From the UHGV virus genome UHGV-0098135: a stretch of 20,243 bases of DNA, one strand, 5' to 3'. This DNA is from a virus. Positions 3,157-6,319 of this stretch are shown here, in pieces (the first letter of the stretch is position 1; every line of letters begins with the position of its first letter). A program made the position numbers and the translations under genes. The notes under the pieces were generated by a model. The model searched no databases, was not told the DNA's origin, and saw only the letters and a list, made by a program, of their open reading frames with translations.

Positions 3157-3450
3157 CCATTACAAAGCCCATTTACGGGTGGGCTTGATAATGAAACCGG
3201 AATTTATTCTGGGTAACCAGTTACGGCAGTACAGCGAAACAACCCAAGCCAGTAAGTGGGGAAATAACACTGGCAGCCACTGAAAGATGAACCTCCTGCC
3301 TTATGGCAAAAAAGATTCTTTGTGGTGGCGGACTGATGGAAAGACATCGGTTATTGCAGAGGCCATTCAATGAGTGGTCTCGACAATGGCTTATACCCTG
3401 CACGGGATAACTTAACTGATATCCCTTTTAACGGATAAACGGAGCCAACA

Positions 3451-3693
3451 ATGGCAGAGATTATTCCCATGACTGAAGAACAGAAATTCCAGTTAGAGAT
3501 TTACAAACTGGTCATGAACCAGAACGCAGCCGCAGAAGAAGCATTTCAGTTCATTGGCACTGACGAGCTGAAGCTTGAGCTATTCAAAATTCACTTCCAG
3601 TCAGGCGGCGCTAATTCGGATATCACGATCCGCACATTCGAAGCGGTACGTAAATCGAAGGAGGCGTTAGACCTGTTCACCGCTGGAGTGTGA
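3451..3693 (+). CDS. Hypothetical protein, 80 aa
   Basis: ATG preceded by GGAG (ACGGAGCCAACAATG); acidic, probably helical; stop is 1 nt before the next ATG (coupled). Confidence 0.6.
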   Translation: MAEIIPMTEEQKFQLEIYKLVMNQNAAAEEAFQFIGTDELKLELFKIHFQSGGANSDITIRTFEAVRKSKEALDLFTAGV

Positions 3694-3694
3694 T

Positions 3695-4084
3695 ATGGCT
3701 AAGGCCAAATGGCACAAACTCCCGGCGTTCACCATTCCGCTGTTTCAAAGTGCACATGTCTACCTCGCAACAACCAGAGAACAGTTTCAGCACGCTGATA
3801 AATTCCTTGGCGGCAGCGGGGATGAGAAGCCATTCAATCTTGGGTTTGCAAGCAACTATGAAAACACTGATACGGGTGAGCGATGCTATCTGATTGGAGT
3901 ATTCGATCAGCAGATCGCTACGCTCGTTCATGAGTGCGCCCACGTCTGCTTTTACGTTTGCTCTGATGTCGGCGTGACGACAAGGCCTGAAGATGCCAAC
4001 GAGACGTACTGTTACATGCTGGACAGGATGGTTAATCACTTCCTGCCATTCATTCAGGAGAAACAAGATGTATCACTGGAATAA
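3695..4084 (+). CDS. Hypothetical protein, 129 aa, with HExxH motif (LVHECAHV) and a downstream Glu; putative minimal zinc-metallopeptidase-like protein
   Basis: Starts 1 nt after the upstream stop. HECAH followed about 20 residues later by PEDANE resembles a gluzincin-type metal site. Function inferred from the motif only. Confidence 0.55.
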   Translation: MAKAKWHKLPAFTIPLFQSAHVYLATTREQFQHADKFLGGSGDEKPFNLGFASNYENTDTGERCYLIGVFDQQIATLVHECAHVCFYVCSDVGVTTRPEDANETYCYMLDRMVNHFLPFIQEKQDVSLE

Positions 4085-4262
4085 TCAATCCCCTTATTGC
4101 CAATGCCAACGCTGCCCGTGCTGCGGGAAGATTGTTAACCAATTTACTGGCAATAATTTCTTCAAGACTGGTTATGGATATGGTGTTGCGGGTAGCGTTA
4201 ATTGCTCTGGGGCTGCTGCTGAAACGACATCAAACACAGGCAAGCAGAAAGGAGCTAAGTAA
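4068..4262 (+). CDS. Possible small Cys-rich protein, 64 aa (CQCQRCPCC cluster)
   Basis: ATG at 4068 preceded by AGGAG (CAGGAGAAACAAGATG); overlaps the 3' end of the upstream ORF by 17 nt; its TAA stop overlaps the next ATG (TAATG). Contained in the track ORF 3993..4262, whose start is not an ATG. Confidence 0.35.
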   Translation: MYHWNNQSPYCQCQRCPCCGKIVNQFTGNNFFKTGYGYGVAGSVNCSGAAAETTSNTGKQKGAK

Positions 4263-4351
4263 TGGTAATCAAAGTTTGTTCAGGCTCTCAGGGCTTCGAC
4301 AACCCATCCAAATTCCGCGATGAATGGGATAAGCAAGCAGAAGGGAAATAA
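4262..4351 (+). CDS. Possible small ORF, 29 aa ([29 protein letters not shown])
   Basis: Strong Shine-Dalgarno AAAGGAG 6 nt upstream of the ATG; TAATG coupling to the upstream ORF; ends 5 nt before the terminase small subunit start. Too short for the ORF track. Confidence 0.3.
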
Positions 4352-4356
4352 TCAAT

Positions 4357-4845
4357 ATGGCAGCACCAAAGGGCAACCGATTTTGGGAGGCCCGCAGTAG
4401 TCATGGGCGAAATCCTAAATTCGAATCGCCTGAGGCGCTGTGGGCTGCTTGTTGTGAATACTTCGAGTGGGCTGATGATAACCCGCTATGGGAGGGTAAG
4501 GTATTTTCATATCAGGGAGAAATAATTAAGGCTAATGTCCCTAAGATGCGAGCCATGACTATTTCAGGATTGTGTACCTTCCTTGATATCACCAGGCAAA
4601 CGTGGGGAACCTTCCGGTCAATGGAAGGTTTTTCTGACGTCACATCACGAGCGGAAGACATCATCTACGACCAGAAATTCTCTGGCGCAGCCGCTGACCT
4701 TCTCAACGCTAACATCATCGCCCGTGATTTGGGCCTCAAAGAGCAGTCGCAAGTTGAAGACGTGACACCTGATAAGGGAGATCGCGATAAGCGGCGCTCT
4801 CGTATCAAGGAGCTATTCAACCGTGGAACTGGACGCGATTCTTGA
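4357..4845 (+). CDS. Terminase small subunit (P22 gp3-like)
   Basis: 162 aa, the size I recall for P22 gp3, and I recall the N-terminus [39 protein letters not shown] as P22 gp3. Sits immediately upstream of the large terminase. Confidence 0.85.
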
Positions 4846-6319
4846 TAACCTGAGCGACGAAGAGCAAATCGAGTTGCTCGAGCTACTCGAAGAAGAAGAG
4901 AACTACCGGAACACACACCTGCTATATGAATTTACGCCATACAGCAAACAGCGTGAGTTCATCGACGCTGGGCATGACTATCCAGAGCGCTGTTTTATGG
5001 CTGGTAACCAGCTTGGTAAGTCATTTACTGGTGCTGCTGAAGTCGCGTTTCACCTTACAGGGCGTTATCCGGGCACAAAAGGCTATCCTGCTGATGGTAA
5101 ATATGGCGGTGAGTGGAAAGGTAAGCGTTTCTATGAGCCTGTTGTCTTCTGGATTGGCGGCGAGACAAACGAGACTGTAACCAAAACGACTCAACGCATC
5201 CTGTGCGGTCGTATCGAAGAGAATGATGAGCCTGGCTACGGTTCCATACCGAAAGAAGACATCATTAGCTGGAAGAAGTCTCCTTTCTTTCCGAACCTTG
5301 TTGATCATCTTCTGGTTAAGCATCACACGGCTGATGGCGTTGAAGATGGCATTTCAATCTGCTACTTCAAACCATACTCGCAAGGCCGTGCTCGCTGGCA
5401 GGGTGACACAATCCACGGCGTGTGGTTTGACGAAGAGCCACCATACAGCATTTATGGAGAAGGGCTTACCCGTACCAACAAATACGGGCAATTCTCAATT
5501 CTGACGTTTACCCCGCTGATGGGGATGTCTGACGTTGTTACCAAGTTCCTGAAGAATCCCAGCAAGTCGCAGAAAGTGGTCAACATGACCATCTACGACG
5601 CTGAGCACTACACCGACGAGCAGAAAGAGCAAATCATCGCATCCTATCCCGAGCATGAGAGAGAGGCGCGTGCTCGCGGTATTCCTACGATGGGTAGTGG
5701 TCGAATCTTCCAGATACCGGAAGAGACTATTAAGTGTCAGCCGTTCGAGTGTCCTGATCACTTCTACGTCATCAATGCAATGGACTTCGGATGGGATCAC
5801 CCACAGGCACATATCCAGCTTTGGTGGGATAAAGACGAGGACGTGATTTATCTTTCTCGCGTCTGGAAGGCCAAACAGAAGAAGGCGACAGAGGCATGGA
5901 GTGCTGTTAAAGCATGGAGCAAAAACACCCCTACAGCTTGGCCTCATGACGGGCATCAGCACGAAAAGGGAGGCGGCGCTCAGCTCAAGGAACAATACGC
6001 CGACGCTGGGTTCGACATGTTGCCAGATCATGCAACATGGCCTGATGGAGGTAATGCGGTCGAACCCGGGATAGCAGAGATACGCGACATGATGCTCGAC
6101 GGTCGTTTCAAGGTATTTAACACCTGCGAGCCATTCTTTGAAGAGTTTCGCCTGTATCACCGCGATGAGAACGGGAAGATCGTCAAGCTAAATGACGACA
6201 TCCTTTCTGCTGTTCGCTATGGCTACATGATGAGGCGTTTTGCAATACAGATGCGAGACATCAAAGATCCTAAAGAGATTGATTACTCAAGCTACAACAT
6301 ACCTTGCGGAGTTGGATGA
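4823..6319 (+). CDS. Terminase large subunit (P22 gp2-like), ATPase/nuclease
   Basis: 498 aa. The start codon at 4823 is GTG, with AAGGAG about 10 nt upstream. Walker-A-like motif AGNQLGKS; overlaps the small subunit by 23 nt; canonical position. Confidence 0.85.

Follow-up and report, generated by a model that had tools for sequence, protein, structure and literature searches.

The window analysed here is a stretch of 20,243 nucleotides (nt) from the viral genome UHGV-0098135. It carries two small open reading frames (ORFs), of 64 and 29 codons, directly upstream of the gene for the small terminase subunit (terS). DNA searches with the window matched P22-like phages and prophages, and it is the late region of a P22-like (Lederbergvirus-like) Escherichia coli prophage. 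A chain of closely packed genes leads from orf80 through a gene of the Orf129 family to the two small ORFs and into the terminase genes (Table 1), of which the large terminase gene occupies 4823-6319. The comparisons described below suggest that the small ORFs (4068-4262 and 4262-4351) are probably two genuine coding genes, translationally coupled within the late operon and placed in a dispensable accessory slot between orf80 and terS. Their products are referred to here as the 64-amino-acid (aa) protein and the 29-aa micro-protein.

The genes of the chain are joined tightly. Orf129 begins after a 1-nt gap behind orf80 and overlaps the 64-codon ORF by 17 nt, the stop codon of the latter (TAA, 4260-4262) shares its final A with the ATG at 4262 (TAATG), and the 29-codon ORF ends 5 nt before terS, which starts at 4357. 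An AGGAG at 4056-4060 (plus strand), which falls inside the 3' end of Orf129, lies 7 nt before the ATG at 4068, and an AAAGGAG Shine-Dalgarno site at 4248-4254 (plus strand) is found at the same distance from the ATG at 4262. An earlier note on this DNA had described the AGGAG and a 64-codon frame containing the cluster CQCQRCPCC correctly to the base. It had also placed the TAATG overlap, the AAAGGAG and the 29-codon ORF ending 5 nt before terS at the right coordinates, and the four tightly coupled small genes that it saw running into the terminase form a real chain by coordinates. It was mistaken in describing the frame that encloses the 64-codon ORF as a non-ATG frame, since this frame (3993-4262, 89 aa) begins with ATG; the upstream ATG is not conserved and is replaced by TTG in the relatives L011 and L012. 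The ATG at 4068 and its AGGAG are kept in relatives, with GTG as the start codon in L151. The 25 nt upstream of this ATG are identical in 13 of 15 distinct versions, L011 and L012 included (L151 and L147 were not comparably displayed). Diverged relatives also keep an overlapping stop and start from the 64-aa gene into the next ORF, in the form of TAATG, TGATG or ATGA.

The same DNA is present, with 97.7-100% identity, in three RefSeq E. coli genomes. In these the Prokaryotic Genome Annotation Pipeline (PGAP) calls a DUF2560 gene, a 129-aa hypothetical protein and the terminase, and the 272 nt between the latter two are left blank. The claim of the earlier note that both ORFs are unannotated holds for the RefSeq complete genomes inspected but not elsewhere, where the exact proteins are recorded as hypothetical: the 64-aa protein as WP_172837190.1 (205 contigs) and the 29-aa peptide as UniProt A0A377CB38 (445 contigs). 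Since an open stretch of 64 codons arises by chance in about 5% of frames ((61/64)^64), the coding verdict rests on comparison with relatives and not on the ORFs themselves. In a consensus scan of the plus strand, 3300-4900 was free of promoter-like sites, and nothing resembling a terminator was detected from orf80 to the start of terS; with neither type of site, expression would come by read-through of the late operon.

Relatives of the 64-codon ORF are few: six clusters in a large protein database, and 15 distinct DNA versions of the gene in pattern scans of viral, metagenome and genome contigs. The informative diverged lineages are L011/L150 (Atlantibacter subterraneus), L151 and L012; L011 differs from the window at 7 of 64 aa, L012 is 63 aa long with 64% identity, and L151 has the GTG start. 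The frame is open in L011, L012 and L151 as well as in about 20 closer loci, and the L012 gene carries a 6-nt in-frame deletion relative to the window. Over 4086-4259, the Nei-Gojobori ratio of non-synonymous to synonymous substitution rates (dN/dS) in the 64-aa frame was 0.33 against L012 and 0.22 against L011. The same bases gave 1.00 and 0.98, respectively, in a competing frame that starts with TTG, and 1.4 and 2.3 in the third frame, where stops abound. The constraint is concentrated N-terminally: codons 7-30 comprise 16 identical, 6 synonymous and 2 non-synonymous codons in the comparison with L012, while the same bases read in the third frame show 0 synonymous and 7 non-synonymous changes. 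By a rough binomial estimate, in which a quarter of random changes are taken as synonymous, at least 6 synonymous changes out of 8 correspond to p ~ 0.004. The module SPYCQCQRCPCCGKI is invariant across more than 20 variants except for one Pro-to-Gln change, and its cysteines are spaced C11-x-C13-x-x-C16-x-C18-C19. A sixth cysteine (C46) is variable: some variants have F or Y in its place, and L012 lacks it. The C-terminal 34 codons change fast and retain their Gly/Ser/Thr/Ala-rich composition, with 6 synonymous and 5-6 non-synonymous codons against L011 and L151.

These comparisons bear directly on the competing frame, in which the real gene would start at TTG 4132 or ATG 4174, run to 4323 and encode a small hydrophobic membrane-type protein (MDMVLRVALIALGLLLKRH...). 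No stop interrupts this frame in the window or in L011, it includes a hydrophobic stretch, and in one contig (L013) a 1-nt deletion shifts the start of the Cys-cluster gene into it. However, it meets a stop after 26 codons in L012, its dN/dS is about 1.0, and its changes are radical, the hydrophobic stretch taking Leu-to-Pro, Leu-to-Gln and Leu-to-Arg replacements in L011 and L151. No Shine-Dalgarno site was noted upstream of it. The earlier note had named this frame as a rival should it prove to be the conserved one; with a dN/dS near 1 and the stop in L012 it can hardly be the gene, and it was rejected.

The 29-codon ORF is the local member of a widespread and mostly unannotated family of late-operon micro-proteins, which are stand-alone and portable. 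The family, which was defined in the present analysis, comprises proteins of 22-31 aa with the core GFDNPxKFR[DE]EWD, and the window ORF fits it in its start, its AAAGGAG 7 nt upstream and its core at residues 11-23. A back-translated core pattern matched more than 120 viral contigs. Together with other loci, 132 instances were obtained, all of them 23-30 codons long from the nearest start and all but one starting with ATG; 50 distinct DNA versions were found among the 131 with a nearby ATG. The N-terminal classes include MATQ-, MKTNQCSE-, MQNNQCTQ-, MKSCNATQ-, MKQPKASQ- and MSQCKASQ-. In every context class, as judged by eye from the upstream sequences, the start has a Shine-Dalgarno-like purine run ahead of it.

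The evidence not biased by the search pattern comes from the flanks, the third-position variation, the members found by tblastn and the loci L011 and L012. In the downstream flank, which lies outside the pattern, the variation is 3-periodic, with an entropy of 0.72 bits at the first, 0.32 at the second and 1.07 at the third codon position, and within the core the third codon positions vary freely. The micro-ORFs of L011 and L012 were located via Orf129 and the 64-aa protein, independently of the micro-ORF itself; each has one extra in-frame codon, and codons 11-29 of L012 show 5 synonymous changes and 1 non-synonymous change. Distant members that had been missed by DNA search were recovered by tblastn in Emek and HK544, where the micro-ORF is preceded by GAAGGAG, in Cronobacter ES2 (MKSCNATQGFDNPTKFREEWDRQTKEA) and in Proteus Brookers (MAVEGSDNPVKFREELDKSIPKK). 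The earlier note had proposed comparison with related prophages as a check, and both small frames, together with the five clustered cysteines, are indeed conserved there with synonymous-biased change.

The micro-ORF occurs in a variety of settings. It is preceded by orf80 (68 cases), by the ends of Rz1/Rz (28), by the 64-aa ORF (14) or by the Q antiterminator gene and terminator (about 6), and followed by an Sf6-type terS (48), a gp3-type terS (31), Rha/KilA-N genes, Dec-like genes or no gene for 100-600 nt. Within late operons it is found behind the Q terminator, behind Rz/Rz1, behind orf80 and ahead of terS, positions that all lie between Q and the terminase. The family spans at least six enterobacterial genera (Escherichia, Salmonella, Cronobacter, Atlantibacter, Proteus and Providencia), in whose lambdoid and P22-like phages it occurs, and it is present in about 4% of complete E. 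coli genomes. Since the amino acids of the micro-protein are conserved while its neighbours vary, we argue that the peptide itself acts in trans. A contribution in cis to the translation of terS is also likely, as the 3' end of the micro-ORF is the ribosome-binding region of terS.

Alternatively, the 29-codon ORF could be a cis-acting leader or coupling ORF that delivers ribosomes to terS or regulates it, its peptide being functionless or acting as an arrest peptide in the exit tunnel. The micro-ORF is nearly always joined tightly to its neighbours (TAATG, TGATG or gaps of 2-5 nt), the purine-rich site for terS, which begins 5 nt further on, is provided by its last codons (GAAGGGAAATAA), and it travels with linker sequences at module boundaries. 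Nevertheless, this alternative seems unlikely to us: the downstream genes are unrelated to each other (two terS types, Rha/KilA-N, Dec-like, a 110-aa ORF, or none for 100-600 nt in the Rz/Q copies), no attenuator or terminator structure follows the micro-ORF in the window, and a core conserved across genera with free third positions would be needless for a mere coupling ORF.

It is also conceivable that neither frame is a gene and that 4085-4356 is a non-coding spacer, a recombination linker or an RNA element in which the open frames are accidental. This would agree with the PGAP blank over exactly this interval, with the 97% conservation of the last 74 nt as DNA ahead of two different terS genes, with the linker repeat around the micro-ORF and with the chance expectation for a 64-codon frame given above. 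Such an origin is very unlikely, though, because synonymous-biased changes are specific to the proposed frames, indels are in frame in both small ORFs, the starts and Shine-Dalgarno sites are conserved, and searches at the protein level reach relatives that DNA searches miss. Moreover, Rfam gave no match at E <= 1 in 3300-5000, and the predicted RNA folding of 4085-4356 is ordinary (z = -0.55).

Several observations weigh against reading the two ORFs as genes. PGAP calls neither small frame in the three RefSeq genomes inspected. For the 64-aa protein, the tail is almost neutral against L012 (12 identical, 2 synonymous and 17 non-synonymous codons), and near-identical E. coli variants show 2 synonymous to 7 non-synonymous changes, which fits weak constraint. 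The family is shallow, with three or four diverged lineages only. AlphaFold2 predicts no confident fold (mean predicted local distance difference test score, pLDDT, 40), and when the 64-aa alignment was used as a profile against 1.84 billion representative proteins, only multi-repeat or low-complexity matches to the tail were returned. Single Logan contigs carry the 1-nt deletion (L013/P0006; L013 1-421), a truncation (P0004) or a fusion of the 64- and 29-codon ORFs (P0003). For the micro-protein, the search pattern forces the core amino acids, so that core conservation in the large sample is not usable as evidence, and the conservation of the micro-ORF is partly at the DNA level, as its 3' end doubles as the ribosome-binding region of terS and as a module-boundary linker. 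The contigs behind the proteins P0003, P0004 and P0006 may represent real pseudogenes or assembly errors, either being possible. Taken together, the codon comparisons suggest that the constraint on the whole 64-aa protein is moderate rather than strong. DNA and tblastn searches with the 64-aa region in 50,697 phage records revealed no relatives, and the gene is a narrow-range ORFan. The two small ORFs nonetheless remain, in our judgement, probable coding genes.

The micro-protein was also compared with annotated families. PHROG, NCBIfam and PADLOC have no family for the 29-aa peptide, and the only Pfam match was a sub-threshold one to DUF2740 (PF10872). Six of seven micro-protein variants align to positions 19-32 of the 43 in this profile, but they score 12.6-15.3 bits (window peptide 12.7) against a gathering cut-off of 27 bits; the relationship, if there is any, would be remote. 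Among 5.8 billion proteins searched with the fusion P0003 as query, no protein of at least 40 aa with the motif was found except one DUF2560 read-through fusion. The esterase/fibronectin-type proteins of 663-707 aa (P0131-P0134) that share a 90% cluster with the 29-aa peptide show no trace of the motif and were dismissed as a clustering artefact. P22 orf25 (MSGLDNGLYHRLDIIRFIPSMWGGG), a tiny ORF that is annotated in P22, was considered as the P22 counterpart of the micro-ORF and rejected, as no similarity is seen by eye and the window has its own orf25 homologue at 3370-3438. The latter, a 22-codon ORF upstream of orf80 (MSGLDNGLYPARDNLTDIPFNG), is the counterpart of P22 orf25.

In some deposited genomes longer coding sequences are annotated across the micro-ORF in another frame: Emek orf53 (L010 588-749), Pm34 gp6 (L015 1469-1615) and Providencia QPB11334. 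An annotated frame of this kind occupies L017 1412-1603, and in Emek the conserved micro-ORF lies at L010 691-762. The deposited frames of Emek orf53, Pm34 gp6 and the L017 coding sequence are probably wrong. In Cronobacter ES2 and Proteus Brookers (L014 1440-1585; L016 1480-1585), the micro-ORF starts 12-35 nt past a strong intrinsic-terminator-like hairpin with a T-run, which in ES2 sits downstream of the Q antiterminator gene. With the micro-ORF in this position, translation of the antiterminated late transcript would begin with it.

Table 1. Features of the window around the two small ORFs (all on the plus strand; coordinates refer to the window)
Feature	Coordinates	Strand	Basis
orf80 / DUF2560 gene, first of the coupled chain	3451-3693	+	PF10834 E=2.6e-42; labelled DUF2560 in RefSeq relatives
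Orf129-family gene, 129 aa	3695-4084	+	phrog_1365 E=4.6e-37
64-aa Cys-cluster gene, stop included	4068-4262	+	open in relatives; dN/dS; in-frame indel
Conserved five-Cys module of the 64-aa protein	4089-4133	+	near-invariant across variants
TTG-initiated rival frame, 63 aa, not accepted as a gene	4132-4323	+	truncation, dN/dS, radical changes
Gly/Ser/Thr/Ala-rich variable tail of the 64-aa protein	4158-4259	+	codon comparison; pLDDT < 50 throughout
29-aa micro-protein gene, stop included	4262-4351	+	motif family; tblastn members; in-frame codon insertions
Ordinary orf80-terS spacer of P22-like E. coli prophages, 74 nt	4287-4360	+	in 214/5426 E. coli genomes
Conserved core of the micro-protein, residues 11-23	4292-4330	+	alignment; third-position variation
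Small terminase subunit terS (P22 gp3 type), end of the chain	4357-4845	+	PF16677 E=8.3e-31; phrog_606 E=3.5e-71

The 64-aa protein is an ORFan with an unusual five-Cys module. No family was found for it in the Pfam (E <= 1), PHROG, NCBIfam (E <= 10) or PADLOC libraries, a sequence search of the PDB gave nothing significant, and a signal peptide is absent. The earlier note had suggested a zinc-ribbon-like metal site, and this part of its reading is not borne out. A zinc ribbon needs two CxxC/CxxH knuckles at least about 10 residues apart, and the 64-aa protein has the single cluster CxCxxCxCC without a second knuckle, C46 being variable; nor is a ribbon recognised by profile or as a beta-hairpin knuckle fold, given the lack of a Pfam, NCBIfam or PDB match and the pLDDT of 40. 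A bacterial metallothionein (PF02069, about 9 Cys and 2 His ligands) was likewise rejected, as the protein has no Pfam match. Its first four cysteines are spaced identically to those of SmtA/BmtA, CQCQRCPC corresponding to CACEPCLC in the N-terminal CxCxxCxC of SmtA. However, this match extends over 8 residues only (pairwise E = 0.2), and the further Cys/His ligands of SmtA are absent from the 64-aa protein. The tail was also considered as a degenerate paralogue of the micro-protein, because both contain xCSG and end in KQxxGxK, and no alignment was found. Binding of metal through thiolates is a plausible and, in our view, the most economical role for five clustered invariant cysteines. The product is probably cytoplasmic; its N-terminal five-Cys module, together with His3, probably binds a metal, and its fast-evolving tail is predicted to be disordered.

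In all loci listed, the 64-aa gene stands directly behind a gene of the Orf129 family, which comprises 206 clusters. Orf129 of the window is ~61% identical to Orf129 of phage L and to orf47 of ST104. The family has the invariant residues H79-E80-x-x-H83 and N102-E103, and its AlphaFold2 model is confident (pLDDT 84), with no structural neighbour found. Its match to TIGR04267 (aKG-HExxH peptide hydroxylase) is confined to residues 75-104 and reaches 17.9 bits (E = 0.0024), the cut-off being 40 bits. These features raise the idea that the 64-aa product is a ribosomally made precursor, with a conserved recognition N-terminus and a hypervariable Gly/Ser/Thr/Cys-rich core, that is processed or modified by the HExxH protein. 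It would accord with the constant presence of Orf129 directly upstream, with the conserved N-terminus and variable C-terminus of the 64-aa protein, and with the HExxH...NE motif and its weak TIGR04267 match. Yet this match is far under the cut-off and covers the motif region only, no transporter or immunity gene is found nearby, and in so narrow a family the co-occurrence of the two genes can be explained by linkage alone. Most Orf129 genes, moreover, have no 64-aa partner: in phage L and ST104 dec follows directly, and in Klebsiella and Citrobacter a 46-aa Lys-rich ORF does. An enzyme-substrate relationship is therefore possible but unlikely, and the precursor model as a whole strikes us as highly improbable. 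There is only a slim chance, too, for a wider scheme in which such a pair makes a modified or processed peptide and the micro-protein serves as a trans-acting late effector on a conserved host or phage target.

The distribution of the DNA itself points to the origin of the small genes. Most of 4050-4360 was found in only 18 of 5426 complete E. coli genomes. In contrast, the 74 nt of 4287-4360 are common (Table 1); they have 95-99% identity in the genomes that carry them and form the entire orf80-terS spacer there, ahead of two unrelated terS types. This insert-less spacer has its own ATG 2 bases past the orf80 stop, giving a 23-aa version in the same frame as the 29-codon ORF, of which the 3' two-thirds (4287-4351) are part of the common spacer. 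As the short spacer is common and the long form rare, the window holds an insert consisting of Orf129, the 64-codon ORF and a new 5' end of the micro-ORF. The 64-aa gene itself came in a cassette (~4045-4286), which brought along an Orf129 tail in place of the last ~10 codons of that gene. The interpretation given in the earlier note is partly supported; it missed the micro-protein family, the position of 4287-4351 within the common spacer, and the cassette with the tail of Orf129.

The linker AAGGAGCYAAGTAATGG (window 4249-4265; L139 540-556) combines a Shine-Dalgarno site, the codons ...GAK and a stop overlapping a start, and it recurs at mosaic joints. It follows both Orf129 of phage L, which it joins to dec, and the 64-aa ORF, and both of these proteins end in GAK. 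In addition, a 24-nt direct repeat (4240-4263 and 4333-4356, plus strand, 19/24 matching) flanks the micro-ORF on both sides, probably as a linker or as the scar of a recombination event. Elsewhere the slot holds orf59c (P22) or Dec (phage L, ST104 and UPF_BP1, with Orf129 before Dec in the first two). Prophages of Klebsiella and Citrobacter have Orf129 followed by the unrelated 46-aa Lys-rich ORF (L141 1874-2014; L144 1874-2014; L145 1290-1430), which overlaps the end of Orf129 and abuts the next gene. In L141 and L144 this ORF also ends in ...GAK before its stop, a likeness read at the protein end only. The 110-aa ORF (MAITAIQTATAGS...) occurs in Atlantibacter, Citrobacter and related prophages (L011 3160-3492, L012 1671-2003, L144 2014-2346), where it separates terS from the micro-ORF, or in L144 from the 46-aa Lys-rich ORF, and corresponds in position to Dec of phage L; no Pfam match is on record for it.

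From the arrangement of the genes, we propose that ribosomes may be relayed from Orf129 to the 64-aa gene, the 29-aa gene and terS via the 17-nt overlap, the TAATG and the 5-nt gap, both small genes being transcribed only by read-through of the late operon. The micro-protein is probably a short amphipathic helix, in which residues 15-27 would place F18 and W22 (also given as F12 and W16) on one face. Its probable role is to act in trans, late in infection, on a conserved partner from the phage or the host. In P22, orf25, pid and orf80 are all replaceable, with lytic growth and lysogeny unaffected (bioRxiv 10.1101/2023.08.15.553423). Since the equivalent region of P22 is deletable, the 64-aa and 29-aa genes would have non-essential accessory functions.

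What is new here is the recognition of the micro-protein family and of its conservation, as both proteins were already in databases as hypothetical. The micro-protein has no family entry in Pfam, PHROG or NCBIfam, its motif is absent from the literature searched, a literature search on DUF2560, DUF2740 and the micro-peptide motif yielded nothing relevant, and no literature mention of the 64-aa protein was found. Annotation routinely omits small phage ORFs or assigns them to a wrong frame, and the micro-protein family offers a concrete and testable case. If the micro-protein has a conserved target, it would represent a new late-phase phage function, for which the neighbouring pid locus of P22 sets a precedent. 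The 64-aa protein is narrower in interest and exemplifies small genes that are carried along with the linkers of mosaic boundaries. Neither small gene alters the understanding of the terminase operon.

Among known systems, P22 pid is an ORFan moron flanked by orf25 and orf80; it escaped notice for decades and is functional via host interaction (PMC3573128, PMC8835761). It resembles the present case as a small overlooked gene in the same dispensable stretch from the lysis genes to gene 3. Transcription of pid comes from its own locus and runs counter to the late operon. The 64-aa and 29-aa ORFs differ in being co-oriented with that operon, coupled and devoid of a promoter-like site, and pid has no sequence similarity to either. 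A classical moron with its own promoter and terminator was accordingly rejected for the insert, as the plus-strand consensus scan found neither of them flanking it. Phage L and ST104 (AY795968, NC_005841), with the order orf80 - Orf129 - dec - gene 3, have the same flanking genes and the same linker junction from the preceding gene into the slot gene. There, however, the slot is filled by the 134-aa capsid decoration protein Dec, to which the 64-aa and 29-aa ORFs found here show no similarity. Stp of phage T4 is a protein of 26 aa, encoded by an early gene, that acts in trans on a host protein. The micro-protein family differs from Stp in its late-operon position and has no sequence relationship to it, but the two share their size class and the idea of a trans-acting peptide of less than 30 aa.

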